DNA of 61,736 bases from a virus (IMGVR_UViG_3300031454_000003:1-61736), one strand, 5' to 3'; positions 1 through 61,736 are shown, counted from the first letter of the stretch. Made by a program: numbers and translations. Notes: generated by a model from the sequence alone, not told the origin.

Positions 1-44
1 CTATGAGGTTGACGCTTCTCAGCTCATCACAGTAATCTTCGTGG
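1..44. repeat. 44-bp terminal direct repeat, identical to 61693..61736 (circular closure or assembly overlap)
   Basis: ctatgaggttgacgcttctcagctcatcacagtaatcttcgtgg is present at both window ends. Confidence 0.95.
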
Positions 45-277
45 CTCTTCGTGCAGGTAACCAGTTCAGTAAAGAAAGACTTAGATACCTTCAGCTGGTC
101 AGCCATCTTGCCTATGAGAAAATTCCCAATCTCTTTCTCTCTGCCGTGCGACATGCGCGTTTTGGTCACGATCTTGCCATTATGCCTGTAAACGTAATAG
201 TGGTGATGCGTTTCGTCGATCTCGCACGCCAACTTTCCCGTAAGCGCCTGCTTAACCTGCCTAGCTGCTAGCGGCAC
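1..277 (-). CDS. HicA-like small protein (toxin-fold candidate). The ORF is cut by the linearisation point and ends GAG TAA at 61688..61692 after closure
   Basis: GTG at 277 overlaps the upstream ORF. Translation ..ETHHHYYVYRHNGKIVTKTRMSHGREKEIGNFLIGKMADQLKVSKSFF.. resembles the HicA SH-G/KEIG/L..Q.G.S core. Confidence 0.4.
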   Translation of the reverse strand, partial: MPLAARQVKQALTGKLACEIDETHHHYYVYRHNGKIVTKTRMSHGREKEIGNFLIGKMADQLKVSKSFFTELVTCTKSHEDYCDELRSVNLI

Positions 278-695
278 GCCCGCCTTGCCCGTTAGGGAAG
301 TAGTCAGTTCGGTTGTTGCCGCCTACGGAACGCTTACCCGCAGACGAAGATGATTGGGAATTATGACCTAACCTCAACGAGGAGGGATTAAGTACTTTCT
401 CGAGAAAGGCTAGTTCCGCACCCAATCTTAAGGAAAGATTGTCACGCTCGTTTTGCAACATCTCATAAGATTCTCGCACCGCCTGTACGAGGTCGTCTAT
501 GGCCTCCTGTTGGGATGCGCCGACCCCGTAAGTGTCAATCTCCTTCGGAAAAATGATGGTAGCGAAAAACTCGCCGTCTTCATAGCATAACGAAAAGGCA
601 ACACCTACGTTATGGCCGTAGGTGTCTAAAGTTCCAATGTTAAAGGTCGAGGAGACTAATGGGTTTGGACCTTCAATTTTGCCGGTCTGAGTCAT
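261..695 (-). CDS. HicB-like (UPF0150-type) protein, antitoxin candidate
   Basis: ATG at 695 lies behind AGGAGGGGG. CYEDGEFFATIIFPKEIDTYGVGASQQEAIDDLVQAVRESYEML resembles the HicB N-terminal fold signature. No recognisable DNA-binding tail. Confidence 0.4.
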   Translation of the reverse strand: MTQTGKIEGPNPLVSSTFNIGTLDTYGHNVGVAFSLCYEDGEFFATIIFPKEIDTYGVGASQQEAIDDLVQAVRESYEMLQNERDNLSLRLGAELAFLEKVLNPSSLRLGHNSQSSSSAGKRSVGGNNRTDYFPNGQGGRAASS

Positions 696-892
696 TATCC
701 CCCTCCTGTCCTGTAAGTTGTTGAGTAAGCTCTTTTGGTAAAGATATTGGAGCGATTCGCTGCTCATAAACAGTTATGAACGTTTGAAGCAGCAAAACGA
801 AGGCCCGGACGTGTGGAACCACCTTGACCAATACCCCGGCTTTCATCTACGTTAAGACGTATCCATAAACCCCTCCAAATGGGCTAAACCCA

Positions 893-3800
893 TCAGCGCC
901 TCCGGGGGCGACGTGACCACTCGAGGGTGCTGCCCGCTGCGTTCGTCGCCATCTTCTCAACTGCGGCAGCGAATCTTTCGGCAGCGTCAAACTGTAACCG
1001 CGCCGCGTTCATCATCAGGCTCGAGGCGCGTTCCATACCGGCAACGGGCGCGGCAAACGAATCTTTAAGCCCGCTGAAGGTGATGTTTAAGCTCAGCGCG
1101 CGCTCTTGTTTACTGCTGAGTGCGAGCGTCCGCGAAGGTCCGAACAGGTCGAGTAGGCCGGTCGTAGCGGCAGCGTAAGCGAGAGCGCCGCTTGTGGCGT
1201 AACTGTAGTCAGGCAAGAACCCGTCAGCGGCAAACGCGCCGATGCTGGGCATAAAGTCTACGGGTGAGATGACCGGCGCTTCACCTGCGTAGCCCGATGA
1301 GCTGGGTGTAGGTGGCGTCGGCAGTTTCGGATACTTGAAGTTTTTAATTACGTCGGCAATACGGCCAAGCGCCCGCTGTAGGGCGGTCTCCTGATCGTTA
1401 ATAATGCCGATGTACTTGTCCATCCCGGTTTTGTAGGCGTCGCCCTGATCGCTAAACGTCGAGTTCGTTTTACCGATTACGTCGTCTCTCATTTTGCCGA
1501 GTGCGCCGGTGACGGTTGACACCGCCGAGCTGAGCGCCGACTTTTCAACGCCGGACGCTTTATCAATGATGCTGCGGAACTCGCGGCTGCCGTTGTCGAA
1601 CGTGCTGCCGATACCCCGGTAGCCTGAATCGGTGTCGCTAGAGATGGACTTTTGCCACGCGCCGAGCGCGCCGGACAAGAGCTTTTCGGCTCCTGAAATG
1701 GCACTCTGTTCAGATTTGGCGCTGCTGTCTATTTGGTTCTGATAGTCGCGGCTATCAGCCTCGTGCTCACGTTTGAGGGCGTCGTACTCACGTTGTAGGG
1801 TGGCTTTTTCGTCGCCTTTTGCCGACGCGATGAGCCGCTCAAATACGGCGGACTCTGCCGAAAACTTACTTTGCTCGGCTTCATAGGCCCGCTGAATTTG
1901 CGAGACCATCTCGCTCGAGCCTTTGCTAAGTCCGCCCGTCACGTCGCCGTAAAGCGAACCGATAGCCGACGTGATGTTTCCGCTTATGTTGCCGACGGTA
2001 CCTGAGACCGCGCTGCCTTGGGTCGTGAAGGCTTGGCTTTCGTCGTTTCCTGACGCGCTTATCGCCGCCGTGAAGATTCGTGAAGCTACCCCAACGGTGT
2101 TGCCCATGCCCGCGTAATCACCGTTTAGGACGCCGGTGATTTTTGAGACCGTATCGGTAATGCTGCTGCCGATAGCGGTGCCGCTAGTGTTGACCGAGTT
2201 GGTTACGTCGCCGGTCATGCTGTCAAACGTGGCCGCGATCTCCCCGTCTACCTGCCGGGTTGCGTCGGCGATACTCATACCGCCGCGCACAAGTTCTTCA
2301 ATACGGCTGTTTCGGGTCGAGAGTTCCAGGGCGACCTTCTCGCGCCCCGCCGCAATCTCGGCGGCAGTCATGTTCGCGCCGCTGATGAACTCGTCTTGCA
2401 GGCGCTTGGCGGATTCTCTGAGTGCGGGTGTTAGGTCGCTACGCTCGAGTAGACCTTGGAGGGTATTCTCCCGGTCCGTAAGGGCTTGCGCTTCGGTTTC
2501 CGCCCCGGCGTCTATACCTGCGGCGGTCTCCCTGCTGCCTTCTTCGTATGCGCCTGACTGCCCATCGTAAGTTGCTTGAATCAAGCCGATGATTTCATCG
2601 GCGGCGGGACCGAGCAGCGCACGGAGTTGAGCGTAGATATTGTCGAGAGCCGCTAATTGGCTCTGGTTACCTGTTTCAGCCGCTTGTCCGGCCTCTGCGC
2701 CGCCCTCTGTGTGTGCCGCCTGCTGGCCCTCGTACGTCTCATTGATAAGGGCGATAATCTCGTCAGCAGCTGGTCCCAGAATCGCGCGCAACTGTGACTC
2801 AATGTTGGACAGCGCCGCCATATGCTCAGCGTTCCCCTGTTCGGCCCCCTCTGAAACGCGAGCGCCGCCCTCGGTATGCGCGCCGTAGACCTCGTTATAC
2901 ATATCCTCGAGGTACCCGGGCAGCTCAATTCCATACTCGCGGGCGGTGGCGATAAAGTCGAGCAGAGCAAGCCGCTGTTCTTCGGTCATGTCGCCGAGAA
3001 CTTCTTGGTTCCCCTCGATGACGGCTTTCCAGTATTCTCTTTCGGACAAGCCTAGTTCTTCAGCCTGCGTTTGGGACTCGAGCAGAATAGCAGCTGAGGT
3101 GTTCGCGTAGTTTTCTTCCAATGCGTCACGTCCGGGCGCAACGATACTTTCTGCGTACGCTTCAGCTTCCTCACGGCTGATGCCGGGGTTAGCAAGAATG
3201 TACGCCCGGATGATGTCTTCCTTGTCTGTTTCTAAATCAGCCATGTCGTCCATAAACGATTGATGGGCGTCTAGAATTTTTGCGTTCGTCTCGAGTATGA
3301 GTATTTCAATATCAGACGCGCCCTGTGCTTTGGCAAGCCGGATACGTGAGTCTAGTAGGCTGTTCTCCCATTCGTCGGTAGCGTCGTTAAAGCTGTCTAT
3401 CTGATCTTGCAGCGCGGCTTCCATGCTTTCGCGCATTTCAGAACCGGCATTGTCCCAGTCGTTGCCGATGTCCTCGGCGTAACCGTCAATGGCGTCGCCA
3501 ATAATTACCGAGCCGTTGGCTACCGACCCGGCAACACCTGAGTTACCGGACTCGAGTTCAGCGATAAAGTCTTCGGTACTTTGCCCTGCTGCGAGCGCCG
3601 TATCAATACCGCCCTGAACGATGGCGTCGGCATTTAACTCGCCACCTTCTCGAATGGCGGTCTCTTCGGCGTCGAAGCCATCGTTGATTAGAGCGATGTC
3701 ATCAGGGTCGGTAATACCCTGTAGCGCCTCCCGCCTGCGTAGCGCAACGTCGGCTAAATCGTCGTTTACCTGCCGCTGGTTTTCAATGAGGTCAAGCTGG

Positions 3801-6800
3801 GTGTTGATGATGTTAAAGCTAAGCTCATCGAGCGCACCGGTCGCAAGGTCATTTTCGGCAAGTTGACGCATGTTGTCTATAGACTGGTCGATGGCACTGT
3901 CAAGTGCGTCCATCGAGCCCGTCATAGCGTCGGTAAACTGCTGCATCTCGCGCTTTGATTCGCTTACGAAGTCGATAAAGGCGTTTAACAGACCTCCCAG
4001 CGCCGCGATAGCCGCCCCGATATAGTCGCCGCTGGCAGCCTTTAGTGCGACCTGCGCGATGTCATCGATTGCTTTGACGCCCGCGTAGGCGGCGGGGCTA
4101 AGGTCGTCTCGGAAGCCTTCAGCTAGAGCGTCGATACCCGCGCCGAGAACAGCGATGCCTTCAGACGGCGTGACGACGCCATCTGAGAGCGCCTTAGACA
4201 TTCCCTTACTTGCATCCGAGAGGGCTTGCAGACCCCCTCTTGCCTGATCGGAAAGTCCAGGTATGTCGGCAAGCGCCCGGTCTGCCGCTGCACCGATCTC
4301 GTCAAAAGTAGAGGCAACATCACGCGCCAAAGCTAAAGCACGAAGGTCTTCTTGGGTCTGCCGCGCTTGCTCGCTGAGTCTGCCTGTCCCCTCTGCCGCC
4401 GTGTCGAGCGAGCTAATGAGGTCGGCTATGTCCTCGGTGGCGATACCTGAAGCGTCACCTAGTGCTTGCTGGGCGTCGCGGGTAGTTTTGAGGTTTTCGG
4501 CGTAGCGTTCGGCAGCTTCTTTTGCACGTTCTACCGCTTCAGCCTGCGCCTGAGTCTTGTCCTCAGACTCTTGCAGCGCCGTGACCCAGCCCTGTAGCCC
4601 GACCGTCGCCGGGTCGATACCTGCACGGTAGAGAGTCTCGAGTGCGCCTTGATATATCCCGGTCTTGTCGGCGTTGAACTTCGCCGCGTCGCCTGTGATA
4701 GTGAAGGCGTTCTCTGCCTCCTGTAGGGCGTTGCGTACCGTCCCCATCACATCGGCAAGAGTGTTGGTCTGTGAGATGGTCAGGGTAGAGCTAGAGGTGT
4801 ACCCGTCCTGTGTTTCTTTCAGGACACGCCACGAGTCGGAAGCCTCAGCCGCCGCTCTAGCTGCCTCGGCTTGTGCCGCTGCTAGCGTGTTGGTTTGGTC
4901 TGTAGCGATAGCCAGGCCGAGTTGCTCGAGCACGGTGGTCTGCTGATGAAAGACGGTAAGCCCATCCGCAATGGTTTTATTTAGGCCGCGCTGTGCGGCT
5001 TCTTGAGCAAACGCGGCGTCGGTGTTTGCTCTTATCGCAGCTTCGGAGGCGTCTTGGGCGTCAGCGTAAAGGTTGACGTTCTGCGCTGCGGTGCTCCATC
5101 CGAGCTGTTCGATGAGCACGCGCTGCTGGGCGAATATGGTGCTGACCGCTTGGATACTCTTATTCGCTTCGCGCTGCGCGTTGTCGTACTCGGTAACACC
5201 GTCTCTGAAGTTTGCGGCTGCGGTTGTTGCTTCCGTAAGTCGAGCCTGAACCGCCGCGATGTCTTCGTCAAACTTCTGTAAGTCTGCGGCGTCATAATCG
5301 CCAGAGGCCAGCGTATCGGCTTTTTGCTGCTTGAGTTCGGCAAGTTTGGCAGTCAGGGCATTTATCGCGGTCGTAGAGCTTATCTCCCCGCGCTGGAACG
5401 AGCTGACGATATTGTTCGCCATGTCCGCAGCGGTGCGGCCTATCTCTTCAATGTTCGCCGCAAGCCTATCGCCCGCTTCGATCTGTGAATCTATCGCCCG
5501 GATAGCTTGCAGGGCTTCAGCCTGCGCCGCCGACCCGATAGGTGAGTTTTCGTAAATCTCTACCAGCCGCTGACGCTCTTCGCGCAACGCAAGTAGTGAA
5601 CCCTCTTGCGCTTGGTTTGCTTCGCCCGCTTCGCCTTGGGTCTTGATGTATTGCTCTACGCCCGCGATAAGGACGTTGACCTCTTGGGCAACGTGCGGAT
5701 AGGCGGTGCGAAGGGCCTTAAGTTGGTTTAGAAATTGCTGGGCCTGTTCGGTGCTGAGGTTTTGCAGGCCGTTGTATTTTTCTTGCGCCCCGGTAAGACC
5801 GCCGAGTTTGTTCGCCGCCTCAACAGTTGCCTGACCGCCTCGGTTAAGCACTTCTATTTGGGCTTCGCCCTGAGAAATGAGGGGGCGCAAGGCCGCCTCG
5901 AGCTGCGGATAGACCTGCAACGCTGCGTTCAGACGGTCAACGTAAGCTTGCACCTCAGCTTTGTTTGTGCTGTACGCCTTACCCATATTGTCTATAGCGC
6001 GCTGCTGTTCTTGTTCGGCGGTTCCTAGTTTAGCTGCCGAGTCCGCCGCTTCATTTTGTGAGGTTGCAAGGCCGTCTATGCTGTCTGCTGCTGCGTCCGT
6101 AGCGGGCGGTAGACCGAAAACACCGCGTACGAAATTATCTACAGACACTAGGTTCTTTTGGTTCTCCGCTTGAAACGCCTGCATACCCTTAGTGTCAAGA
6201 GCGTCGTCTATAGCCGTGCTGATGGTGGCGTAGGTATCTTTAATGCTCTGACCTACACCGACGATTGCGCCACCGATACCGGCGATACCAGCGCCGAACT
6301 GTGCGAAGGATATACCGATCTGGCGCGCCAGTGTTTCGCTACGCCCCATAATCGGCTCGAGGCCAGCCAGACCCCGCGAAAAGTCAAGGACGTTGTTCAG
6401 TAGTCCCTGAAAAACCGGCAAGACTGCCAGCGCCATTTTGTCGCCTAAGAAACCGAACGCGCTACCGATGAGCGTAACCGTGCTGTTGAGGCTTTTTAAC
6501 TTAGCGTCAACCTCAGTTTGAAGGGCGTTTAAGTCTTCAGCTTCAGCTCGAGCCAACTTAAGTGATAAACCAAAGTCTTCATACCCGCCGACTAAGGCGT
6601 CGAGAACTCGGATGTTTTCAGAACCGCTAAAGCCCAAGTCGGCGTAAATGCCGACAAGGGACTCGCCGGAATCACTTGCTTCTTTAATGCCGCCAGTGAG
6701 CTGATAAAACGCTTCGACCGGGTTTTCCTTAAACAGCTTGGCAAACTCTTCCGAAGTCAAACCCGTGATCGCTGCAAACTTATCTAACGCCGCGCCGCCT

Positions 6801-9800
6801 TCGTCTACAGCCTTAACGATGATGTTAAAGATGCGTACGGTGCTTTCGCCGCCAGCTTCGGCGCTGAACCCTAGACTCGCGAGCGCGCCCGCCATACCTA
6901 AAATCTCAGTCTGAGACGCGCCCGCCGAGGTTGAGAGTCCGGTGAGGCGTGAGGCAAGCGCCAAGATAGGTGCTTCAGTAGTACGCAGGTTGTTGCCGAG
7001 TTCGGTGATAACGTTACCGACCAGATTAGCCGAGTCGGTGATAGACACGTTTGCGTCTTTTGTCAATCCGACGAACGTAGCAAGTTGCTGAGCACCCTCT
7101 TCTCCGACAATATCTGTGGCGATGCCCAGCTTGTTCATGATGTCAACAAAACCCGCGATGTTGTCAGCGCCTTTAATGCCGAGCTGACCCGCAACCGCCG
7201 CGTACTCCTGAAGGGCTAAGACGCCTGTGCCCGTTTCAGTCGAAATGCCTTGTAACTTCGTTTGCAACAAACCGAGTTGGTCTTGAGTCAGGCCGGTAGT
7301 CTTACCGATAGCAACCAGGCCGTCATTTAGGTCGCCAGCCCGGTCGAAAAGTGCTTTGGTCGCTACCGCCGCGCCGATGATCGCGCCGACCACACCGACC
7401 GTCAGGGCGATGTTCAACGCCTTAGCCGACAGCGAAGCTCCGGTCATTCCAGCCGACGCGCTGAACATGGCAACGCCCATCGCTTCACCCGCAGGCCCGA
7501 GGCGGTAAAGGACGTTCTGAAGCTGGTCCGAAACCCCCGCCGTGACACCTGACGCGACCCCAAAGGTGCGTACCCGGCCCTCGGCTTGCGCTAACGACGA
7601 TTCAACCCGAGTGAGACCGGTGGTGTAATTTGCGTAGGCGCGGGTGCTGTTATCCAGACCCGAGCGGCTCTGCTCGAGCGCCACGCCGATGCCGCGCGCC
7701 GAAACACTGAACTGTTCTTGCGAGATGTCGCCACGCTCTAAAGCCAGCTTGAGCTCGTTTAGTGCCGCAACTTGCTGCCGGACGTTCTCAGCCTGAAAAG
7801 CGTCACCGGCCCGCTGCTGGGCTGTGGCTAGACGCGTTGCCGCACTCTCGGTCTGCCCCATCACAGAGGCGAGCGTGCGCTGCTCGTTGGCACTTAGCGT
7901 CGTGCTATTAGCGAACTCGCGTAAACGCCCCTGAAGCGCCTCAATAGCGCGGGCGGTCTGGTCAAACGAGGTGACGCCGTTTTTGTTGGCGGTGACGATC
8001 TGCTCTAGGTCGCTGCGGAACGTCTTGAGCGCGTCAACCCGGAACGCTGCCTCGAGCTTGCTCTGCTCGGCGACAAGGCGGGTCGTTGCGCCCTCAAGCT
8101 CGCGCTCTACATTCTGTAGTGCCGTCAGCTCACGGACCGACAGGTTCGCCGCTTGTCCCGAGTCACGCAGTGAGGTGTCGAGTTTATTCAGTTCGCCTTC
8201 AATGCCTGAGAAAGCGGTACCCAGCTCACGCCCGGTGCTCTGCAAGTCCTTGAGTTCGGTGCTGTAAACCCGCACCGGCCCCGCGTCGAAGGCTCTGCTT
8301 GTGCGCTCGGCTGTGGTGCCGACCTCTAGCAGCGCCCGCTCGGATACGTCTAGCAACTTATTGAAGTCAGCAAACTCGCGGCTGTTCTGGTTCAGGGTGC
8401 TGCCGTACTCGCGCAGTCTGCTCTGCGAATCCGACACGGCGCGGGTAAAACCCTCTGCGCCGATCCCGCCTTTGTCGTAAGCCTGCACCGCGTTTTGCAA
8501 CTCACCGACGAATGAACGCAGTGCCGAAGCGTCAAACGCTCGAGCTGCTCGCTCCTGCGCCCCGGCGAAGGTGTCGGCGCTCCGGCCCGCGTCGATCTGT
8601 AAACGTGAGAAGGTATCCAGCTCACGCTCAGCTATCCCCAGCGCGGCGGCGTAGTCCTTGAACTCGGTTTGTATCTGCTGCACAGCACGAGCCGCTTGCT
8701 CGGTGCTGGTGAGGTTGCTCTTTTGCGCTTTTTCAACGTCACGGAGGCGCGCTGTGAACTGCTCGATTTCAGCACCGCGATAAGCCTGCGCCGCGCGCTC
8801 CTGTTCCCGTGTCAACGACTGTGTAGCGCGCTCGGTGGCGTCCATGACCCGGACGAGTTCCTTGTGCTCACTCGAGCCCTCTGAGAGCCCACGAGCATAG
8901 TCCTGTAACTTACCCCTCAAACCCTCGAGACCGCGCCCTAACCCGTCAAACGACCCACTCAGGCGCTCCTGCTCACCCCGGTACTGTGAAACTGCGCCTG
9001 AGTCGTACTTTAAGGCGCGCTGCTGTGAGTCGAGCCGACCGAGTTCGGCGGTCGTATTGCGGAGGGTACCCTCGAGCTGTTTTAGTTCGGTGCCGTAGGT
9101 GCGGATCTGGGCAGCGTCGTTTGCGCGAGAAGCCTTCTCCGCTGCCGTCTGATACCGCTCCTGCTGCGCTGCCGCCTCTTTAAGTAGACGACTGAACTGA
9201 TCGAACTCACGCCCGGTATTCGTGAGCGCGGCCTGTTGTTCTTTTAGTTCGGCGCTGAGTTTTTGTACACGTGTTGAGGCGTTCTCAAAACCGTCGGTGC
9301 CGGACTTTACCGCGGCGTCAATCTGCTTAAACTCGCCCGCGTAACGGCTGAGTTCATCACTGCGAAAACTAGCCGTGAGTTTGTCGGCGTCCGCCTCGAG
9401 TTTTTTGATCGCCGTCCCGGTGTCGCCCATCGCCTTAATGACAGACTTATACTCGGCGCTGTTTTTCTCGAGCGCGCCGGTCTGCTGTGCTAAGGCACTC
9501 TGATAGCTTTTGAGCTGAGAGATGGCCTGCGTTTGTGATGTGACGCCCGCTTTTTGCGCCTGCACGATGTCGAGTAGTCCCCGACCGTAGCGGGTCAGGT
9601 CTTCAGTCTTGTACGACGCGGTGAGGGACTTGTTGAGTGACTCTAGCTTTTTGCCCTCGTCGCCTGCCGCTTTCATATCTTTAGCGATGCCTAAGTATCC
9701 GGCCCCGGCTTTGTCCAGTACCGCAACCTGACCTTTTAGGATGGCCTCAAGCTCCCGGTAGCGTTGCAAGCTGCTCTGTATCTCTGCCGCGCCAGCCTTG

Positions 9801-10045
9801 ACCGCGTTCGCCAGGTTTTGCATCTCGCGCAGGGTCAGCTGCGCTTGTTTGGCGAGCGGGTCTAGGCGAGCGTTCGCTTCTTTGGCAGCGGTAGCGAGAC
9901 CCTGAAGGGCGCGCTCGAGAGTATCGGTAGATTCCTTTTTAAAGGTTTTCTCTACGGCCTGCTCGACCTCTTTTAGTGCTGTGAGGACTTTGCTGTTATC
10001 GAGTACGATTCCTACGGTTAAGGAAGCTAGCGGAATTTCTGCCAT
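893..10045 (-). CDS. tail tape measure protein, 3050 aa
   Basis: Giant ORF between the tail-tube genes and tail-tip genes. N-terminal third is made of coiled-coil repeats, with central Gly/Ala-rich hydrophobic stretches. SD GGAGGGG lies upstream. Confidence 0.9.
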   Translation of the reverse strand: MAEIPLASLTVGIVLDNSKVLTALKEVEQAVEKTFKKESTDTLERALQGLATAAKEANARLDPLAKQAQLTLREMQNLANAVKAGAAEIQSSLQRYRELEAILKGQVAVLDKAGAGYLGIAKDMKAAGDEGKKLESLNKSLTASYKTEDLTRYGRGLLDIVQAQKAGVTSQTQAISQLKSYQSALAQQTGALEKNSAEYKSVIKAMGDTGTAIKKLEADADKLTASFRSDELSRYAGEFKQIDAAVKSGTDGFENASTRVQKLSAELKEQQAALTNTGREFDQFSRLLKEAAAQQERYQTAAEKASRANDAAQIRTYGTELKQLEGTLRNTTAELGRLDSQQRALKYDSGAVSQYRGEQERLSGSFDGLGRGLEGLRGKLQDYARGLSEGSSEHKELVRVMDATERATQSLTREQERAAQAYRGAEIEQFTARLRDVEKAQKSNLTSTEQAARAVQQIQTEFKDYAAALGIAERELDTFSRLQIDAGRSADTFAGAQERAARAFDASALRSFVGELQNAVQAYDKGGIGAEGFTRAVSDSQSRLREYGSTLNQNSREFADFNKLLDVSERALLEVGTTAERTSRAFDAGPVRVYSTELKDLQSTGRELGTAFSGIEGELNKLDTSLRDSGQAANLSVRELTALQNVERELEGATTRLVAEQSKLEAAFRVDALKTFRSDLEQIVTANKNGVTSFDQTARAIEALQGRLREFANSTTLSANEQRTLASVMGQTESAATRLATAQQRAGDAFQAENVRQQVAALNELKLALERGDISQEQFSVSARGIGVALEQSRSGLDNSTRAYANYTTGLTRVESSLAQAEGRVRTFGVASGVTAGVSDQLQNVLYRLGPAGEAMGVAMFSASAGMTGASLSAKALNIALTVGVVGAIIGAAVATKALFDRAGDLNDGLVAIGKTTGLTQDQLGLLQTKLQGISTETGTGVLALQEYAAVAGQLGIKGADNIAGFVDIMNKLGIATDIVGEEGAQQLATFVGLTKDANVSITDSANLVGNVITELGNNLRTTEAPILALASRLTGLSTSAGASQTEILGMAGALASLGFSAEAGGESTVRIFNIIVKAVDEGGAALDKFAAITGLTSEEFAKLFKENPVEAFYQLTGGIKEASDSGESLVGIYADLGFSGSENIRVLDALVGGYEDFGLSLKLARAEAEDLNALQTEVDAKLKSLNSTVTLIGSAFGFLGDKMALAVLPVFQGLLNNVLDFSRGLAGLEPIMGRSETLARQIGISFAQFGAGIAGIGGAIVGVGQSIKDTYATISTAIDDALDTKGMQAFQAENQKNLVSVDNFVRGVFGLPPATDAAADSIDGLATSQNEAADSAAKLGTAEQEQQRAIDNMGKAYSTNKAEVQAYVDRLNAALQVYPQLEAALRPLISQGEAQIEVLNRGGQATVEAANKLGGLTGAQEKYNGLQNLSTEQAQQFLNQLKALRTAYPHVAQEVNVLIAGVEQYIKTQGEAGEANQAQEGSLLALREERQRLVEIYENSPIGSAAQAEALQAIRAIDSQIEAGDRLAANIEEIGRTAADMANNIVSSFQRGEISSTTAINALTAKLAELKQQKADTLASGDYDAADLQKFDEDIAAVQARLTEATTAAANFRDGVTEYDNAQREANKSIQAVSTIFAQQRVLIEQLGWSTAAQNVNLYADAQDASEAAIRANTDAAFAQEAAQRGLNKTIADGLTVFHQQTTVLEQLGLAIATDQTNTLAAAQAEAARAAAEASDSWRVLKETQDGYTSSSTLTISQTNTLADVMGTVRNALQEAENAFTITGDAAKFNADKTGIYQGALETLYRAGIDPATVGLQGWVTALQESEDKTQAQAEAVERAKEAAERYAENLKTTRDAQQALGDASGIATEDIADLISSLDTAAEGTGRLSEQARQTQEDLRALALARDVASTFDEIGAAADRALADIPGLSDQARGGLQALSDASKGMSKALSDGVVTPSEGIAVLGAGIDALAEGFRDDLSPAAYAGVKAIDDIAQVALKAASGDYIGAAIAALGGLLNAFIDFVSESKREMQQFTDAMTGSMDALDSAIDQSIDNMRQLAENDLATGALDELSFNIINTQLDLIENQRQVNDDLADVALRRREALQGITDPDDIALINDGFDAEETAIREGGELNADAIVQGGIDTALAAGQSTEDFIAELESGNSGVAGSVANGSVIIGDAIDGYAEDIGNDWDNAGSEMRESMEAALQDQIDSFNDATDEWENSLLDSRIRLAKAQGASDIEILILETNAKILDAHQSFMDDMADLETDKEDIIRAYILANPGISREEAEAYAESIVAPGRDALEENYANTSAAILLESQTQAEELGLSEREYWKAVIEGNQEVLGDMTEEQRLALLDFIATAREYGIELPGYLEDMYNEVYGAHTEGGARVSEGAEQGNAEHMAALSNIESQLRAILGPAADEIIALINETYEGQQAAHTEGGAEAGQAAETGNQSQLAALDNIYAQLRALLGPAADEIIGLIQATYDGQSGAYEEGSRETAAGIDAGAETEAQALTDRENTLQGLLERSDLTPALRESAKRLQDEFISGANMTAAEIAAGREKVALELSTRNSRIEELVRGGMSIADATRQVDGEIAATFDSMTGDVTNSVNTSGTAIGSSITDTVSKITGVLNGDYAGMGNTVGVASRIFTAAISASGNDESQAFTTQGSAVSGTVGNISGNITSAIGSLYGDVTGGLSKGSSEMVSQIQRAYEAEQSKFSAESAVFERLIASAKGDEKATLQREYDALKREHEADSRDYQNQIDSSAKSEQSAISGAEKLLSGALGAWQKSISSDTDSGYRGIGSTFDNGSREFRSIIDKASGVEKSALSSAVSTVTGALGKMRDDVIGKTNSTFSDQGDAYKTGMDKYIGIINDQETALQRALGRIADVIKNFKYPKLPTPPTPSSSGYAGEAPVISPVDFMPSIGAFAADGFLPDYSYATSGALAYAAATTGLLDLFGPSRTLALSSKQERALSLNITFSGLKDSFAAPVAGMERASSLMMNAARLQFDAAERFAAAVEKMATNAAGSTLEWSRRPRRR
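2552..2881 (-). repeat. tandem 165-nt (55-aa) duplication inside the tape measure
   Basis: AHTEGGARVSEGAEQGN..LRAILGPAADEIIALINETYEGQ is followed by AHTEGGAEAGQAAETGN..LRALLGPAADEIIGLIQATYDGQ. Confidence 0.8.
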
Positions 10046-14026: not shown

Positions 14027-14809
14027 CTAAAACAATCTCCCCGCAAAATCTAAAGGTGATTTTGTACCTTTTTGTAAATTGCAGGTTTTGCAGGCACAAA
14101 CTATATTTGAAGGATCATTGCTACCTCCATTCGCCAAAGCAATTACATGGTCAACATGGTATCCAGATTTTTTCAAATCAGTACCACACCACCAACACCT
14201 ACCTTTTTGAATCTGAAACCGCTTTTTAATGTCAGTGGAATTTACTGTCCCGCCGCCTGCGCGTTTGCGTGCCTTGCGTACTCTAGCGTGAAGACGGGCC
14301 GTCTCGGGATTAGCAGCACGATTTCTTCTTGCTCTAGCCCTTTCTTTTTCGGGGTCGGCTCGTCGGCGCGCTTCCCGGCTGAGCGCCCGGCAATGTTCCA
14401 CGTTAGCGTAGTATGCATCCTGACGCCGAGCCTTGCGCGTTTCGGGATTTTCCCTTTTATACAAAACCGCCCTTTGCGCTATACAGCGTTCACGATTTTT
14501 TTCATAGTGCGCGCACTGATACTTGTTATCACATTCTCGGCATGTTCTTTTGAGGCCATCGCCGTGTTTGGAAACCAGAAAGAACTCTGACGTTCTTTCA
14601 TACGAACGTTGACAAGACGTACAAACCGCCCTGTCAACTTCTTTGACGGGGCGGTTTACTTCTCTCCAAGCCTTATTTTTCACACTTACACAAGATTTGC
14701 AATAGTAATCTAAGCCATCATTTCTGTCTCTTCGTATAGAAAAGTTAGAAAATGGCTTAACTTGCTTGCATGAAGCACAGGGCTTGGAGCCTTCGGGTAG
14801 ACTATCCAC
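14027..14809 (-). CDS. HNH endonuclease, family A (CxxC N-terminus, basic middle, C-terminal HNH)
   Basis: QKGRCWWCGTDLKKSGYHVDHVIALANGGSNDPSNIVCACKTCNLQKGTKSPLDFAGRLF. GTG start behind AGGAGG. Confidence 0.85.
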   Translation of the reverse strand: MDSLPEGSKPCASCKQVKPFSNFSIRRDRNDGLDYYCKSCVSVKNKAWREVNRPVKEVDRAVCTSCQRSYERTSEFFLVSKHGDGLKRTCRECDNKYQCAHYEKNRERCIAQRAVLYKRENPETRKARRQDAYYANVEHCRALSREARRRADPEKERARARRNRAANPETARLHARVRKARKRAGGGTVNSTDIKKRFQIQKGRCWWCGTDLKKSGYHVDHVIALANGGSNDPSNIVCACKTCNLQKGTKSPLDFAGRLF

Positions 14810-20300: not shown

Positions 20301-21638
20301 CTAAAAACTAGGAAACGAATACGAAGCGGGGTAGTCGGTGGTGGGTTCGGGCTCGAGCAAATGCATGACCATGTACCGCACGCAGTCCACGCCGTCGTCA
20401 AACTCTTTCACGGGATGTTCTTTTAACGTCTCACCGCCTGCACCTTTAGCCCAGGTGTAACCCTCGATTTCTTCTTCGGTGCAAGTGGGGCCGTTACTGA
20501 GGTCGGTCGTCTCGTCTATGAGCAGCGGGTCACGCTCTACTAACGCGCCACGCATTAAGTAGAGGCGCGGCTTACCATCGTCAGCAATCGCTAAGCGGTC
20601 TAGGACGGCCTGTATGCCGGTAGTCACGGCTTTGTTTGCCGCTGTAGTTTTTATGTTGAGTTCCTGCTCGAGGGTCGCCCTGTCCTCAGCGTCATGATCG
20701 GTGATGGTCGCTTCTATTCGCTCACCTTCGCTTAGCCGCCTGATCTGCGCCGCGTGGTCTTTCACAGTGCGCTGCGTTTTATATATCTCGCGGTAGCGGT
20801 ACAGGCGACCGTCAGGGTCGAGCGCAAACCAGCTACAGACAAAAGGGTGAGTGAATCCGAAATCCACTACCCTAAACTTTCGCCAGTCGGCGGGGATAGG
20901 AAAGTTGTCTATAAGATGCACAGCGGCGTCGTAGTTCTCGAATACGACGCCCTCAGACGCTACCCACTTGCCATAGCGGAGGCGTTGCTTACGCGCCCCT
21001 GTGAGTTTGTCCAGACGCGCCATGTAAGAGACGCCGAACGGGGTCAGCTCGCCCTTTGCGGTGTAAAGACGCGGGTTCTCTTCGTGCCTGCTGAGTAGCC
21101 TGTGAGTCAAGGCCGCGTCCATACGTTTATTCAGCCAGTGCGAGGGCGGGCCGGGATTACAGTCCCCAAAAAGCTGCTGGTAGGGGATGACGCCGTTTCT
21201 AAGGCGCGTGCTTAAGAACTCCCAGTCATTCAGGGTTAGCTCGGTAGCCTCTTGCACGTAGATCACATCGAACTCGGCAGACATAAGCTTGACCGGATTG
21301 TCGATACCGGCCACGATGATCTCGGAACCGTTCGGGTATTCGTATGACTGCCTTACCCGCCGCTTTTGGTTCGTGGTGTCGCAGCCGGGTTTGACGTGTG
21401 CCTCGAACGTCACTAAAGCCGTCTCGGTTATCGCTGCCCTTGCTTTACGCACGATAGCAAGGCGGCAGCCGGGATACTTCTCGGCAAGGGCGTTAAGTTT
21501 CTCGAGTGCTACGCGACTCTTGCCAGTCCCTGCCGGACCGTCGAGCAGAAACTCGTCAAGCTTGCACCGTAAAGCAGCAAGTGCAGAGCCTCGGGGGAAG
21601 TAAACGTTTGCGTTTGTCGGTATAGCTCTAGAGATCAT
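20301..21638 (-). CDS. terL: terminase large subunit
   Basis: Walker A LLDGPAGTGKS, C-terminal nuclease-like half, ATG overlapping the end of the small subunit gene. Confidence 0.9.
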   Translation of the reverse strand: MISRAIPTNANVYFPRGSALAALRCKLDEFLLDGPAGTGKSRVALEKLNALAEKYPGCRLAIVRKARAAITETALVTFEAHVKPGCDTTNQKRRVRQSYEYPNGSEIIVAGIDNPVKLMSAEFDVIYVQEATELTLNDWEFLSTRLRNGVIPYQQLFGDCNPGPPSHWLNKRMDAALTHRLLSRHEENPRLYTAKGELTPFGVSYMARLDKLTGARKQRLRYGKWVASEGVVFENYDAAVHLIDNFPIPADWRKFRVVDFGFTHPFVCSWFALDPDGRLYRYREIYKTQRTVKDHAAQIRRLSEGERIEATITDHDAEDRATLEQELNIKTTAANKAVTTGIQAVLDRLAIADDGKPRLYLMRGALVERDPLLIDETTDLSNGPTCTEEEIEGYTWAKGAGGETLKEHPVKEFDDGVDCVRYMVMHLLEPEPTTDYPASYSFPSF

Positions 21639-26091: not shown

Positions 26092-26116
26092 TGCAGTCAC
26101 CTCCAGTGGTTGTCGC

Positions 26117-26164: not shown

Positions 26165-26186
26165 CAATTTGCCGTGCTAGACAGCA

Positions 26187-40488: not shown

Positions 40489-40520
40489 GAAGACCCCGAC
40501 ACCGACCTCGAGCGCCTAGG

Positions 40521-41455: not shown

Positions 41456-42787
41456 ATGTCTCAACTTGCTACCAAAGCAACCCCCGCCGCCTTCTTGGGC
41501 CGAGTCTCCACACAAAATCAAGCAAAACTCGACAAGCAAGGGTTGCCTGAACAGCGCCGCGCTGCCCAAGCTTACGCTGAAGCGAATGATTTTGAGATTG
41601 TCGCAACATTTGAAGATGTGATTTCCGGGGCGTCGGAAGCGCGCCCCGCTTTTTACGAGATGCTGTCACGGTCTTACGAGTTCAAGGCCGTGATCGTTTC
41701 GCATACCGACCGGCTGGCTCGTGACCTCGAGCTGGGCCTGAGACATATGCGCCTCATCCGTGAGGCGGGTCTCGAGCTGCACAGCGCCGCGCGGGGGCTT
41801 GTAGAAAAGGGCATCGTCTCCGGCGTCGATATGCTCTTAGGTGAACACGAGAAAGAGCGGATCAAAGAGCGGACGCAAAACGGTTTGATAGCAGAGGCTC
41901 GGGACGGTAAATTGCCGAACGGTCTCCACCTTTTTGGCTACCACAACGTACCGGGACAAAACCGAGGTGTGATCAACCCGGACGCAGCCGCTGTCGTACG
42001 GCGCGTCTTCGACCTTGGGGCGCAGGGTCTCAGCTACCGCGCCATTGCACGTGTGATGATGGCGACGCGCGCCCTTACACCGCTCGGTAAAGAGAGCTGG
42101 TATCAGCACACCGTCCGGCGCATGATCTGTAACACCGCCTATAAGGGTGAGTTCGTTTGGACACACAAACGCGGCGGTCGCTTTGTGCTGCCTGTGCCAG
42201 CTATCGTGTCAGCCGAAGAGTGGGCAAAAGCGCAGCGCCACAAGCGCGGCCCGCCTGTACAGGTGCCGCTCCCCTTATCAGGTCGGCTCCGGTGCGGTCG
42301 GTGCGGTGCGGCGATGGGCGTGCGGAAAGTTGACCGGGGCGGCAAGCACGTCTACCTCTACTACCGCTGTGGCAGCGCAGGAACCCCGAGCGGCGCGTGC
42401 GGCGTGGGGCTCGTCAGGCGCGACAAGCTCGAGCCTAAAGCCGAAATCCTCTTACGCGACACGTTGCAACATCCTGACCTGTTACGGGACCTCACGCGCC
42501 CTGACACAGAGCGAGACCAGCACGAGCAGCGCCGCCTTGACGACTTAGGCGAAAGAGCGGAGCGGGTGAAAGAGATGCGTTTAGATGGACTCTACAGCCG
42601 CGAAGAAGCGCGGATAAAAGTAGCGGAAATCGACGCCGAACGACGTGCGCTAACGCAGCAAGACGACACCGAATTTCCCCTCGAGGAGTTTGCCCTGGCA
42701 GCCCGTGAAATGCCTTTTGCCGAGCTTTTAGAGCTTACACAACCGACGTTTTACGTGCAGGGCGACGTTCTTACGCTGGAGTTTTGA
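41456..42787 (+). CDS. int: large serine recombinase (integrase)
   Basis: N-terminal resolvase domain FLGRVSTQNQ, recombinase domain, and Cys-rich zinc ribbon CGRCGAAM...YYRCG. Confidence 0.9.
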   Translation: MSQLATKATPAAFLGRVSTQNQAKLDKQGLPEQRRAAQAYAEANDFEIVATFEDVISGASEARPAFYEMLSRSYEFKAVIVSHTDRLARDLELGLRHMRLIREAGLELHSAARGLVEKGIVSGVDMLLGEHEKERIKERTQNGLIAEARDGKLPNGLHLFGYHNVPGQNRGVINPDAAAVVRRVFDLGAQGLSYRAIARVMMATRALTPLGKESWYQHTVRRMICNTAYKGEFVWTHKRGGRFVLPVPAIVSAEEWAKAQRHKRGPPVQVPLPLSGRLRCGRCGAAMGVRKVDRGGKHVYLYYRCGSAGTPSGACGVGLVRRDKLEPKAEILLRDTLQHPDLLRDLTRPDTERDQHEQRRLDDLGERAERVKEMRLDGLYSREEARIKVAEIDAERRALTQQDDTEFPLEEFALAAREMPFAELLELTQPTFYVQGDVLTLEF

Positions 42788-42807: not shown

Positions 42808-42850
42808 TGTTACAATAGATGTGCCTCACGAGGTTCGAGCCTCTAGGCAC
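42808..42850 (+). promoter_or_regulatory. private HNH promoter (TGtTACAAT) plus nested leader hairpin
   Basis: GTGCCT CAC GAGG ttcgag CCTC T AGGCAC, followed by GGAAGGAG and ATG. Confidence 0.55.
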
Positions 42851-42875
42851 TCTGCGCTCTGGAAGGAGCAACAGC

Positions 42876-43535
42876 ATGTCAAATATAGCACCGGAACTAA
42901 AAGTATGTTTGAAATGTGGAGTGGCATATCCACTTGATGACTACCGTATTGAGATGAGACGAGGTAAGCCATATCGTCGGCCCGATTGTAGGACTTGTAG
43001 GGCAGAGACGTCTAAACAGTATTATGAGGCGAATAAAGAAAAGATCATGCAGACTGGCAGGGTTTGGGCAAAACAGAATAGAGAGCACGTCGCCGCTAAA
43101 ATACGACAACGACGACGTGCAAAAACACAAGAGAAAAAAGCCGCTCGAGCAGTCGTACCACATCCTGATAATATTGTTTTAATATCGGCCTTAAGGCGCT
43201 CCTTAAAACAGTGGAGTCCTGAAAAAGACCGAGCGGCTGCTCATAACACTAGAGCCAAGAATTTAGGTATTAAAGGCCGAATTACCTTTTTCGATATACA
43301 AGCCAAGCTTTTAGAGCAGGATTTTTTCTGCTACCTGTGTGGCGCTATGTTAGAAGACAACTACCATGTAGACCATGTTCTGGCGTTGGCGAGGGGCGGC
43401 GCGAACGATCCGGGTAACATTGCTATAGCATGTTCGCTTTGTAACTGGTCAAAAAATGACCGTGACCTTAAAGAGTATAAGGATTTTGAGAAACAGACCC
43501 TTAAGAAACCCACTCCGAAAACGGCGTTTCATTAG
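42876..43535 (+). CDS. HNH endonuclease, family A
   Basis: YHVDHVLALARGGANDPGNIAIACSLCNWSKNDR. N-terminal CLKCG...CRTC. Confidence 0.85.
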   Translation: MSNIAPELKVCLKCGVAYPLDDYRIEMRRGKPYRRPDCRTCRAETSKQYYEANKEKIMQTGRVWAKQNREHVAAKIRQRRRAKTQEKKAARAVVPHPDNIVLISALRRSLKQWSPEKDRAAAHNTRAKNLGIKGRITFFDIQAKLLEQDFFCYLCGAMLEDNYHVDHVLALARGGANDPGNIAIACSLCNWSKNDRDLKEYKDFEKQTLKKPTPKTAFH

Positions 43536-45869: not shown

Positions 45870-46117
45870 TCGGCGCTATCACAGCCCCCCTTATTATCCC
45901 GCCGTGTAACGAGTGCGCCGGACAGGGTTCATTCGTTACCTCAGATTGCACAGAGGTTCGGTGCGAGCCTTGTAGCGGCACGGGAGAAGGAATACCGATC
46001 TGCTCAGCCTGTAACGCCCCCCCTCAGCTTGTAAACGGGCTCGAGTCGTGTCAGTGCGACCCGAGCCAAGAGATAGAATGGGCTATGGAGTTTACGGACT
46101 GGCTGGCGGCAGCGTGA
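45866..46117 (+). CDS. small DnaJ-type zinc-finger (CxxCxGxG x2) protein
   Basis: CNECAGQG ... CEPCSGTG ... CSAC. Confidence 0.55.
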   Translation: MIGAITAPLIIPPCNECAGQGSFVTSDCTEVRCEPCSGTGEGIPICSACNAPPQLVNGLESCQCDPSQEIEWAMEFTDWLAAA

Positions 46118-50251: not shown

Positions 50252-50278
50252 AAAAACGAGGCGGTACATGACCGCCTC
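50252..50278 (-). terminator. intrinsic terminator
   Basis: Sense strand reads GAGGCGGT catgt ACCGCCTC G TTTTT. Confidence 0.55.
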
Positions 50279-50542
50279 GAGAGTGTTTAGATCGACCTAG
50301 GCGCTAGGCATTGTGAGCGAAAACGCGGAAATGGTAAATTCCCCGTTCTAAAGAGATTTTCAGCTCAGCAAAGTTTCAGTTTCAGCCCGCGCCCTTATTT
50401 CGAGCATCTGCGCGGCCTTCAGCGTGCGAAAGCTCATGTGCGTGTCACGTTAAGGCCAGCCAAACATCTTCAGGGCTGCCTACAAGTGCCGGGTATTTCA
50501 CATCGACATCTAAAATTTCAAGGCATTTTCGTGTCCTAGACG

Positions 50543-50595
50543 TGTTATAATGGAAAAACCGACAGGTCATAGGGATGTCCGTCCCTCGCTGCCGG
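50543..50595 (+). promoter_or_regulatory. private HNH promoter (TGtTATAAT) plus nested leader hairpin
   Basis: CCGACAG g tcat AGGGA tgtccg TCCCT cg CTGCCGG, followed by GGAGGT and ATG. Confidence 0.5.
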
Positions 50596-50622
50596 TCACT
50601 AGGCACATCGGAGGTGCATAGC

Positions 50623-51216
50623 ATGACAATTTTACCCCTTTCTAAAACTTGCGTACATTGTGATAACGAGTTTCCGGCTACCGCTGAGTATTTTCACCGC
50701 GATAAAAAACGTGAGGGTGGACTTTATCCGCGTTGCAAAGTTTGTAAGTACATAGCGACGCGAAACCTAACAACCGCACAACGTTTTGGGCAATCCGTAA
50801 ATAAAACGTCAGATTGTTGGTTATGGACAGATCGGCTTAAAGACAACGGCTATGCAACATTTACATGGAAAGGCGTCGGGCATTATGTGCACCGTTATAG
50901 CTATGGACTACACTATGGAAAATTTGACACAACCTTACAGGTTTTACATACATGCGATGTCCGAAATTGCGTTAATCCTGAACATCTCTTCCTTGGCACA
51001 ATTGCGGACAATATGGCTGACAAAGTGGCTAAAGGTAGACAGCGGCGGGGTGTAGCACATCTAATGGCAAAGCTTACGGAAGAGGATGTAACGAAGATTC
51101 GGCATGCCTACGCCGAGAAACGTTACAGCCAGAGCCAACTAGGTAAGCAATTCGGTGTTACCCAAACTTGTATCGGGGCGATTGTGAGACGGAAAACTTG
51201 GTCTCATATTATGTGA
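50623..51216 (+). CDS. HNH endonuclease, family B
   Basis: CWLWTDRLKDNGYATF..HRYSYGLHYG..HTCDVRNCVNPEHLFLGTIADN and a C-terminal HTH. Confidence 0.8.
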   Translation: MTILPLSKTCVHCDNEFPATAEYFHRDKKREGGLYPRCKVCKYIATRNLTTAQRFGQSVNKTSDCWLWTDRLKDNGYATFTWKGVGHYVHRYSYGLHYGKFDTTLQVLHTCDVRNCVNPEHLFLGTIADNMADKVAKGRQRRGVAHLMAKLTEEDVTKIRHAYAEKRYSQSQLGKQFGVTQTCIGAIVRRKTWSHIM

Positions 51217-60796: not shown

Positions 60797-61405
60797 TTAA
60801 AAAAGCCTCCCTGCAAAATCAAGGGGGCTTCTAGCGTGCTTACTCAAATTGCATGTAGGGCAACTGCACACTAGATTCTCTGGGCCGTTAGAACCGCCTT
60901 TTGAAAGTGCTACAACATGGTCAACGTGGTACTTACCCTTGCCGGACTTCTTGAGCTTGGCTCCACACCACCAGCACATGCCTTTTTGGGCATCAAACTG
61001 CCTAGCCACATCCTCGGCGGTATGTGTGCCTTGAGCGCCGCGCTTAAGTGCCTGCCTTTTTCTTTGATAAGCTGCATCTTTGTCAAGGTTTGCTTTTCTC
61101 CAAGCTGTTTTTCTTCCTGGGTTTTCTTCACACCACCTTGCAGTACGCGCCCTTGCTTCTGCGGCATGGGTGGCGCTATACTCCCTATTTTTTTCTATAA
61201 ACCTTGTGCGATTGGCTGCGTAATGTATTTTCGCTTTGTGTCTATTTTCCGCGCGATTGGCTAGGTAGTGTTCTCTCTGATACTCCTTAACGCAAACTCT
61301 ACAGTGTGATGATAAACCACTTTTAGACCGAGAGTATTTAAGAAATTCCGATGGGGGTTTCTTTTCCTTGCACTTATTACAACATTTCAGCGATAAACTA
61401 TCCAT
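60797..61405 (-). CDS. HNH endonuclease, family A
   Basis: QKGMCWWCGAKLKKSGKGKYHVDHVVALSKGGSNGPENLVCSCPTCNLSKHARSPLDFAGRLF. Confidence 0.85.
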   Translation of the reverse strand: MDSLSLKCCNKCKEKKPPSEFLKYSRSKSGLSSHCRVCVKEYQREHYLANRAENRHKAKIHYAANRTRFIEKNREYSATHAAEARARTARWCEENPGRKTAWRKANLDKDAAYQRKRQALKRGAQGTHTAEDVARQFDAQKGMCWWCGAKLKKSGKGKYHVDHVVALSKGGSNGPENLVCSCPTCNLSKHARSPLDFAGRLF

Positions 61406-61490: not shown

Positions 61491-61622
61491 TCAGCGCCGC
61501 CTCGGTCGCCGCGACCACTCGAGGGTGCTAGCCGGTTCAGCGCCGCGCCCCAGACGCTCTACGGTGTCACGCATCATCTCAGCGGTAACGCGGTTGGGGA
61601 CCGGGTTACGAATTCTTGGCAT
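61491..61622 (-). CDS. 43-aa ORF ending in the same 12 residues as the tape measure
   Basis: AAGGAG lies 6 nt before the ATG. MPRIRNPVPNRVTAEMMRDTVERLGRGAEPASTLEWSRRPRRR. Confidence 0.5.
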   Translation of the reverse strand: MPRIRNPVPNRVTAEMMRDTVERLGRGAEPASTLEWSRRPRRR

Positions 61623-61642
61623 GGTGGCTCCTTAAAGGCATG

Positions 61643-61667
61643 AAAAAAGCGCCCGGTGAGGGGCGCT
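61643..61667 (-). terminator. intrinsic terminator after the HicA-like gene, abutting the next SD
   Basis: Sense strand reads AGCGCCC ctcacc GGGCGCT TTTTTT. Confidence 0.65.
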
Positions 61668-61692
61668 GGTATATCAGGTTCTTTCTTTTACT

Positions 61693-61736
61693 CTATGAGG
61701 TTGACGCTTCTCAGCTCATCACAGTAATCTTCGTGG
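61693..61736. repeat. second copy of the 44-bp terminal repeat
   Basis: Identical to 1..44. Confidence 0.95.

Follow-up and report, generated by a model that had tools for sequence, protein, structure and literature searches.

Why should a phage genome be crowded with a palindrome of the restriction-site type, when phages under restriction typically avoid such words? The question is raised by CTCGAG, a six-base type II site (XhoI/PaeR7I type), in IMGVR_UViG_3300031454_000003:1-61736, a viral DNA of 61,736 nucleotides that was analysed over its whole length and is called the window below. The window represents a complete temperate siphovirus-like phage. CTCGAG occurs in it 119 times (1.93 per kb, or 1,928 per Mb), with 23 copies in 1..10045, and is the commonest hexamer on the strand by raw count. 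The original prediction, made from the sequence alone, had counted about 120 sites, 23 of them in that first segment, and an excess of about eightfold over a random hexamer. The exact figures bear this out, with 7.9 times the flat expectation of 4^-6, 6.6 times that from base composition (18.0 sites) and, in the Markov check it had suggested, 3.9 times that of a third-order model (30.5 sites). A fourth-order model expects 90.6 sites, but this high value arises from the sites themselves, which inflate the overlapping pentamers CTCGA and TCGAG.

The enrichment requires the whole palindrome. With the last base varied in the order A, C, G, T, the words CTCGAN occur 16, 16, 119 and 10 times, and with the first base varied, NTCGAG occurs 12, 119, 27 and 13 times; all one-mismatch neighbours of CTCGAG lie between 0.39 and 1.53 times their expectation. 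The core TCGA is found 185 times outside CTCGAG against 234 expected. Since TCGA is thus below expectation outside the sites and the other NTCGAG and CTCGAN words are ordinary, an effect driven by TCGA or by a C|G codon junction was rejected. A longer hidden motif was likewise rejected, because the positions flanking the sites carry at most 0.14 bits of information and the abundance of GCTCGAGC (21 copies) equals the product of the flank frequencies. A repeated element, internal gene repeats or an assembly or linker artefact could also multiply a word, and apart from the high count itself nothing points to such a source. The sequences around the 119 sites resemble one another no more than random positions do (similarity 0.303 vs 0.292), and the single pair with similar flanks, at 34273 and 34939, falls in duplicated DUF7352 genes. 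Tandem repeats are essentially missing from the genome, which has one trivial example. The identical phage was moreover assembled independently (contig L100, 100% identity over 21 kb), and an equal excess is present in relatives from JGI, ENA and Logan, so that an origin of this kind can for practical purposes be dismissed.

Codon usage is the obvious competitor, because 74% of the sites are in-frame CTC-GAG and Leu-Glu dipeptides are 1.35 times as frequent as expected. The original prediction had named a codon-preserving shuffle as the decisive comparison. When codons were exchanged within each gene such that protein and codon usage were kept (500 runs), 31.6 ± 5.2 sites remained in the open reading frames (ORFs), with a maximum of 47, against 116 observed (3.7-fold; z = 16.4); a codon-permutation shuffle gave 23.7 ± 4.7. 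When the 4,096 hexamers of the window are ranked against the synonymous-shuffle null, CTCGAG comes first, followed by its own overlapping shadows. By reading frame, 88 sites lie in frame 0 (Leu-Glu), 15 in frame 1 and 13 in frame 2, and four or five are intergenic, in keeping with the earlier impression that many sites are Leu-Glu codon pairs and others are off-frame or between genes. Each frame exceeds the shuffle 3.4- to 5-fold. If only those places are counted where the protein sequence permits CTCGAG, the odds ratios per opportunity are 7.8, 6.6 and 4.9 for frames 0, 1 and 2, respectively. Within frame 0, 88 of 166 Leu-Glu pairs are written CTC-GAG (4.8-fold; 88 of 156, or 56%, in the core genes), although CTC makes up merely 20% of the leucine codons outside Leu-Glu; CTC-GAA (0.26x), CTG-GAA, CTG-GAG (0.30x) and TTG-GAG are used at 0.18-0.30 times expectation. 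The excess over the shuffles and the odds in all frames together indicate that the excess is real, acts on DNA and is blind to the reading frame. It lies beyond what codon usage or Leu-Glu frequency yields. With off-frame and intergenic sites equally enriched, and with zero sites in sister phages of similar CTC and GAG usage, an account based on codon usage, on the abundance of Leu-Glu or on a preference of translation for the codon pair CUC-GAG retains next to no probability.

The other 63 six-base palindromes occur at 0.43 times expectation and the GC-rich ones at 0.31 times, in agreement with the premise that phages usually deplete such words. Nine are absent (CTGCAG, GTCGAC, GCCGGC, CGGCCG, GGGCCC, TGGCCA, TGCGCA, ACTAGT and ATTAAT), and others are scarce, with two GGCGCC, four CCGCGG and one TTTAAA (against 19 by the third-order model). 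The 23 palindromes that have the base composition of CTCGAG occur 0-19 times each. Compared with classical restriction-site avoidance, CTCGAG is the right kind of word, the window avoids other palindromes, and sister phages avoid CTCGAG itself, but the sign is reversed in the window, where CTCGAG is enriched 3.7- to 6.6-fold and tops the 4,096 hexamers. A separate avoidance signal concerns the asymmetric, type IIS-like word CTGGAG/CTCCAG, which is depleted to 0.39x (14 vs 36).

Relatives of the window phage were scored against the same synonymous shuffle, with z and the Leu-Glu fraction referring to the sampled locus of each. Five of them carry the excess, at densities of 1,050-3,400 sites per Mb, and with the window they make up six mosaic phages from at least five datasets. 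L108, whose terminase large subunit (TerL) matches that of the window (20301..21656, minus strand) at 83%, has 72 sites in 21 kb at a GC content of 65.7% (z = 11), and 79% of its Leu-Glu pairs are written CTCGAG. L201 (major capsid protein 92%, GC 59%) has 46 sites in 18 kb (z = 10.4; 64% of Leu-Glu), L099 (66-85% nucleotide identity, GC 55%) 13 sites in 7.6 kb (z = 7.9; 73%), and L120 together with L200 (portal 64%, GC 55.9%) 39 sites in 23 kb (z = 7.7; 41%). The fifth, L098 (GC 56%), is otherwise unrelated, has a tyrosine integrase and differs in its overall tetranucleotide signature, sharing only a methyltransferase domain and the primase with the window; it has 22 sites in 21 kb (z = 5.9; 36% of Leu-Glu). 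Under the same null CTCGAG ranks first of 4,096 hexamers in L108 and L099, and second in L098.

Other close relatives do the opposite. The named close TerL homologs are all from Deinococcus (D. phoenicis 76%, Deinococcus sp. KNUC1210 74%, D. aquatilis 73%, D. lacus 68%), and the prophages in these four genomes, as well as the DdrB-bearing contig L115 (TerL approximately 60%), are purged of the word. They contain 0, 0, 1, 1 and 2 sites where approximately seven are expected in each (pooled 4 vs 35.4; P = 3e-11), and only 0-3% of their Leu-Glu pairs are written CTCGAG. Another relative, L001 (TerL 74%), is neutral (z = 0.7). Among these relatives CTCGAG has a bimodal distribution, which we take to be new: one set of phages favours it above every other word, and in close relatives it is forbidden. 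The idea of a host or lineage signature, put forward in the original prediction, therefore stands for the group of gene-sharing phages and fails for the lineage as a whole, given the deficit in the relatives from Deinococcus genomes. The purged sister prophages imply that CTCGAG-specific systems act in the Deinococcus-type host group, with an outcome that depends on the host. Enriched phages and avoiders have GCCGGC, GGCGCC, CGGCCG and CCGCGG in common as avoided words.

Individual sites illustrate how the two groups diverge. At two conserved Leu-Glu positions in TerL the window and L108 have CTCGAG, where the Deinococcus prophages use CTGGAG, CTGGAA, TTGGAA or CTCGAA, and the TerL gene of L108 has gained extra sites through amino-acid replacement. 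As a rough indication, in a small set of orthologs delimited with a crude ORF caller that yielded few of them in high-GC loci, approximately half of the sites are shared with L099 (65% amino-acid identity) and four of ten window sites with L108 (49% identity). Many sites in this same small set fall where the partner has no Leu-Glu. For HIP1 of cyanobacteria, discussed below, site conservation between related genomes exceeds that of control words (Xu et al., 2018).

Two further groups of contigs show palindrome preferences of their own. Six distant IMG/VR contigs (L010, L011, L017, L018, L037 and L076; TerL 47-50%, GC 64-67%) have a weaker, joint excess of CTCGAG and GCCGGC over the synonymous shuffle (z approximately 4-6 each) and strongly avoid GCGCGC; possibly they stand for another group of hosts in which certain palindromes are favoured. 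In three bacterial contigs with a small prophage-like island (L101-L103, GC 65.6%), CGATCG and GTCGAC reach 4.8x and 4.2x, measured against base composition alone.

The distribution of CTCGAG along the genome was less uneven than it had seemed. According to the original prediction the sites were patchy, with clear deserts; the four gaps exist as located and measure 1321, 1855, 1995 and 2869 bp, but they match random placement. The largest observed gaps (2869, 1995, 1855 and 1799 bp) resemble the means from simulations with 119 uniformly random sites (2760, 2235, 1987 and 1814 bp), gap lengths fit an exponential distribution (Kolmogorov-Smirnov p = 0.43; coefficient of variation 0.93), and the variance-to-mean ratio of binned site counts (0.56-0.82) is not significant. 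Two of the four gaps each hold one HNH endonuclease gene, and HNH genes alone are significantly poor in sites; the other deserts are due to chance.

As had been claimed, the genome contains six HNH genes, all recognised by Pfam, with exactly two sites between them. On the minus strand these are 14027..14809 (GC 46%, no site), the HNH_3 gene 25405..26187 (GC 44%, no site, and three Leu-Glu pairs none of which is CTCGAG), 27098..27880 (one site, at 27199) and 60797..61405 (GC 46%, no site); on the plus strand they are 42819..43535 (GC 46%, one site, at 43144) and the HNH_3 gene 50575..51216 (GC 46%, no site). At the core rate 9.0 sites would be expected in them (P = 0.006), whereas their composition predicts 0.9. 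None of their ten Leu-Glu pairs is CTC-GAG, compared with 88 of 156 in the core (Fisher p = 0.0004), which is the pattern expected if the signature accumulates with residence time. Their pooled GC content is 47% (44-51% in individual genes) in a genome of 56%. The notion that CTCGAG flags recently acquired DNA is upheld for these six cassettes, which it marks as foreign or recent and which look like recent, unadapted arrivals. Six free-standing HNH genes, scattered over the structural, replication and late regions, are also an unusually heavy load of homing-type cassettes.

A possible link to the word was the Dam-family methyltransferase (MTase) of the window, with whose specificity the original prediction had proposed to compare m6A at CTCGAG. 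Its gene (30642..31751, minus strand), the only DNA MTase gene detected in the window, fuses an unassigned N-terminal domain to an N6-adenine MTase domain (PF05869, residues 215-335). Among the relatives, however, the modules of this protein do not track the enrichment. L099 (2358-3449) has the N-terminal domain of the window at 77% identity and a Dam domain at 41%, whereas L098 (10001-10960) carries the Dam domain at 85% on a DUF3102 N-terminus. In L120 (6617-7693) and L108 the same locus encodes DUF3102 and an unassigned C-terminus of approximately 250 amino acids, with no Dam domain. Conversely, Dam homologs with 50-62% identity reside on non-enriched contigs of similar GC content, with one site each. 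Because no single MTase module follows the enrichment and L108 and L120 are Dam-less at the locus, the phage Dam MTase is not supported as the determinant, and the evidence points away from it in this role. Independently of this question, the N-terminal and Dam domains evidently recombine separately at one early-region locus among related phages.

The specificity of the enzyme itself is not readily read from its relatives. It scores below the NCBIfam equivalog cut-off (55 vs 97 bits), no relative of solved structure was found, and its N-terminal domain aligns weakly with DUF3102 (hhalign E = 0.013). GATC, which a GATC-targeting Dam system would lead one to find at or above expectation, occurs at 0.59x. 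Among phage adenine MTases, those of the Hia5/Hin1523 kind can have next to no sequence specificity (PMC3299994).

The closest parallels to the enrichment are the highly iterated palindromes (HIPs) of cyanobacteria, HIP1 and its alternates. These are GC-rich palindromes that occur at 0.5-2.5 per kb in all frames and beyond codon preference, and they have been linked to cognate MTases, although their origin is still a puzzle (PMC4390886; PMC5861425). The likeness to HIP1 (GCGATCGC), already noted in the original prediction, extends to several properties. CTCGAG is a GC-rich perfect palindrome and a restriction- or methylation-type word, it is the top or near-top word, its excess arises at the DNA level, exceeds what codon usage explains and extends to every frame and to non-coding sequence, and its distribution is specific to a clade with related genomes that lack it. 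The window, with approximately 1,930 sites per Mb, is also as dense in the word as HIP-bearing genomes, for which 500-2,500 per Mb have been reported (Elhai, 2015; PMC4390886). There are differences as well. CTCGAG is a hexamer and HIP1 an octamer, and its fold excess is lower (4-10x vs 15-300x). It was seen in phages of a Deinococcus-type host group, whereas HIP1 resides in cyanobacterial chromosomes, and it has no detectable regularity of spacing, while the periodicity of HIP1 is on a scale of tens of kb, too coarse to show up in a genome of 62 kb. In addition, the sister genomes actively avoid CTCGAG and do not merely lack it, and no MTase of CTCGAG specificity was recognised; the lone Dam-family MTase of the window does not track the enrichment.

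Very-short-patch repair by the Dcm/Vsr system of Escherichia coli, which leads to an over-representation of CCWGG and a depletion of its T:G-derived neighbours, is the prototype of an MTase-linked, purely mutational route to a raised word frequency. Its effect is modest, however, and in phages enriched in CTCGAG 56-79% of the synonymous Leu-Glu opportunities are filled. Genome-wide, the transition neighbours of CTCGAG are undepleted (TTCGAG/CTCGAA 1.01x, CTTGAG/CTCAAG 1.53x). The in-frame depletion of CTC-GAA is shared by alternatives with two and three mismatches. No clear footprint of such repair was seen, and neither a Vsr gene nor an m5C MTase gene was found in the phage window. DNA uptake sequences (DUS/USS) and Chi are short words that occur approximately once per kb and serve as 'self' signals for DNA-processing machines, and Deinococcus is naturally transformable. 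These signals are 8-12 nt long and asymmetric, and Chi is strand-oriented, whereas CTCGAG is a symmetric hexamer for which we know of no role in uptake or recombination. As regards CTCGAG as a methylation target, giant viruses encode orphan CTCGAG MTases (Jeudy et al., 2020; PMC7253447) and Halorubrum has an m5C CTCGAG methylase (PMC8112702). These enzymes illustrate that CTCGAG can be methylated, as m6A, m4C or m5C, without a partner nuclease and in viruses, but the papers claim no enrichment of the word, and as far as compared the enzymes are unrelated to the Dam-family MTase of the window. The literature searched yielded no account of an over-represented CTCGAG in bacteria or phages; the matches concerned intergenic DNA of the honey bee and giant-virus methylation.

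Taken together, these comparisons lead us to favour, tentatively and without calling it probable outright, a reading in which CTCGAG is a HIP1-like palindrome that is kept hyper-abundant by a DNA-level pressure from the cellular background, probably methylation without restriction. In the usual cellular background of these phages CTCGAG would be a favoured word and not a restriction target, and would most likely carry methylation with no cognate nuclease at work. As the phages reside and replicate there over long periods, synonymous and non-coding opportunities would be filled with CTCGAG, driven either by selection for the site or by a methylation-linked repair bias as Elhai proposed for the HIPs. 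Long residence goes with the temperate lifestyle marked by a large serine integrase (41456..42787, plus strand) together with an S24 (LexA/CI-like) repressor (38907..39782, plus strand). Newly arrived DNA such as the HNH cassettes would have yet to acquire the word, and sister phages in CTCGAG-restricting Deinococcus strains would have been purged of it. What has been observed is the DNA-level excess, its uniformity over all frames, its presence in six mosaic phages and its absence from sister prophages and HNH cassettes. A determinant in the host is suggested because the phages that share the word have inconsistent MTase modules and one of them is otherwise unrelated, and because CTCGAG is missing from recent cassettes and has been purged from the sister phages of other Deinococcus strains. 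Several observations weigh against this reading. GC contents from 55 to 66% among the enriched phages hint at several host species, and every named Deinococcus relative avoids the word. Regular spacing, as might be predicted from the HIP1 periodicity or from the mismatch-repair model of Elhai, is missing, albeit in a genome of 62 kb that affords little power, and so is any clear genome-wide one-mismatch depletion as expected if very-short-patch repair acted as a simple ratchet. The window, a closed circle, has no host flank, and scans of metagenome and viral collections brought up no close relative of its integrase. Finally, a Zn-ribbon/DUF7146/Toprim primase like that of the window (26187..27101, minus strand) is encoded by each of the four enriched relatives with a sampled early region (L099, L108, L098 and L120; 44-59% identity) and is found in none of the sampled regions of six non-enriched TerL relatives.

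This primase association is the main attraction of a phage-autonomous alternative, according to which a protein of the early or replication module recognises CTCGAG and the genome has been selected for many copies, to the benefit of priming, recombination-dependent replication, methylation self-marking or compaction. Candidates would be the DUF3102-type or similar N-terminal domain, which is Dam-fused in some phages and sits at one locus in the window, L099, L098, L108 and L120, the primase, or an unannotated DNA-binding protein. The enrichment is confined to a mosaic gene pool, its spread over such different GC contents is more readily understood if the phage takes its determinant along, and a density of one site per approximately 0.3-0.5 kb might be appropriate for a signal in replication or repair. 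Among 80 phages with a related primase, though, only the closest (L120, 57% identity) is enriched, and primase relatives with 44-45% identity (L121 and L122) have 0 and 6 sites. The fact that only the closest is enriched can be counted for a phage-borne determinant, but it also means that an effect of the primase family is inseparable from that of a common host or gene pool. Homologs of the N-terminal domain of the window (42-46%) occur on the non-enriched contigs L101-L103 and L106, the MTase modules are inconsistent among the enriched phages, and no CTCGAG-specific protein was recognised. To our knowledge, known primase recognition sites are moreover trinucleotides and not palindromic. Phage autonomy is hence a serious contender, but on balance an unlikely one.

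A passive origin is very improbable by comparison with the evidence at hand. If restriction of CTCGAG had been lifted, for instance by a broad phage adenine MTase such as the nearly non-specific Hia5/Hin1523-type enzymes, continued avoidance of many other words, CTGGAG, CTGCAG and GAGCTC among them, might funnel Leu-Glu into CTC-GAG, and both the depletion of CTGGAG/CTCCAG with the low use of CTG-GAG and the absence of many other palindromes would fit. This argument does not apply to frames 1 and 2 and to intergenic DNA, however, where CTCGAG is equally enriched, and it is thereby largely refuted. Furthermore, CTCGAA/TTCGAG is not avoided genome-wide (29 vs 28.8), yet in-frame CTC-GAA is rare, and the neutral L001 shows what relaxed avoidance looks like, with a z far from the 16 of the window. 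A more far-reaching reading, which we consider quite doubtful, is that a HIP-like system outside the cyanobacteria is carried or exploited by phages. A mosaic group of temperate phages of Deinococcus-type hosts would saturate its genomes with a restriction-type palindrome that sister phages have to purge, and CTCGAG would act as a density-dependent, methylation-linked 'self' or processing signal for repair, recombination or transformation, or replication, with a protein of host or phage as its reader.

Almost all hyper-abundant palindromes known so far are cyanobacterial, and the origin and role of HIP1 are open after thirty years. Here the word is another one, the phylum is not that of the cyanobacteria, and the genomes are small phage genomes sequenced in full; close relatives that are enriched, neutral or purged for one hexamer provide a natural contrast that renders the question testable. 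Opposite DNA-level pressures evidently bear on one six-base word in closely related viruses. If the host chromosome carries the excess as well, a new HIP-bearing bacterial group would be at hand; if it does not, this would be the first phage-autonomous case. Should CTCGAG indeed be a signal, one hexamer would be both weapon target and passport within one host genus. In practical terms, CTCGAG offers a sharp compositional marker for phage-host assignment and for spotting recently acquired cassettes.

The intergenic sites, which the original prediction had placed in spacers and terminator stems, were confirmed at 22165 and 40507, the latter (40507..40512) between early-region ORFs. Two more lie in hairpin stems. 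CTCGAG at 50276..50281 begins the stem of a GC-rich, terminator-like hairpin as its 5' part, with TTTTT coming next on the minus strand, and that at 46040..46045 is within a long hairpin stem (GGCTCGAGTCG...CGACCCGAGCC).

The window itself is a closed circular assembly, whose last 44 bases (61693-61736) repeat positions 1-44, giving a complete genome of approximately 61,692 bp. Its GC content is 55.5%, and ORFs, mostly on the minus strand, cover 95% of it. In addition to the genes mentioned above it encodes a portal, a major head protein, a DEAD helicase and a Rad52-like protein; tRNA genes were not found in it, and a megablast search of the phage collection returned no DNA-level matches. The ORF of 3,050 amino acids at 893..10045 (minus strand) is, by its position, probably the tape measure protein; the equivalent large ORF of L114, downstream of the head genes, has a PhageMin_Tail domain. 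It holds 22 CTCGAG sites (2.4 per kb), in line with the genome average, and no internal tandem repeat that could account for them was found.

The two DUF7352 genes form a direct repeat of 263 bp with 77% identity (34055-34317 and 34721-34983). In the late or accessory region, 46654-47385 (minus strand) encodes a staphylococcal-nuclease-like (SNase-type) protein that ends in an Excalibur calcium-binding domain and is probably secreted as a nuclease. An ORF of 1,138 amino acids at 55463-58879 (minus strand, 60% GC), which has no family match, is by position probably a tail fibre or host-recognition protein. It has two CTCGAG sites in 3.4 kb against approximately seven expected, a nominally low number that is not significant when the number of genes is allowed for, and it could be a recently exchanged host-range module.

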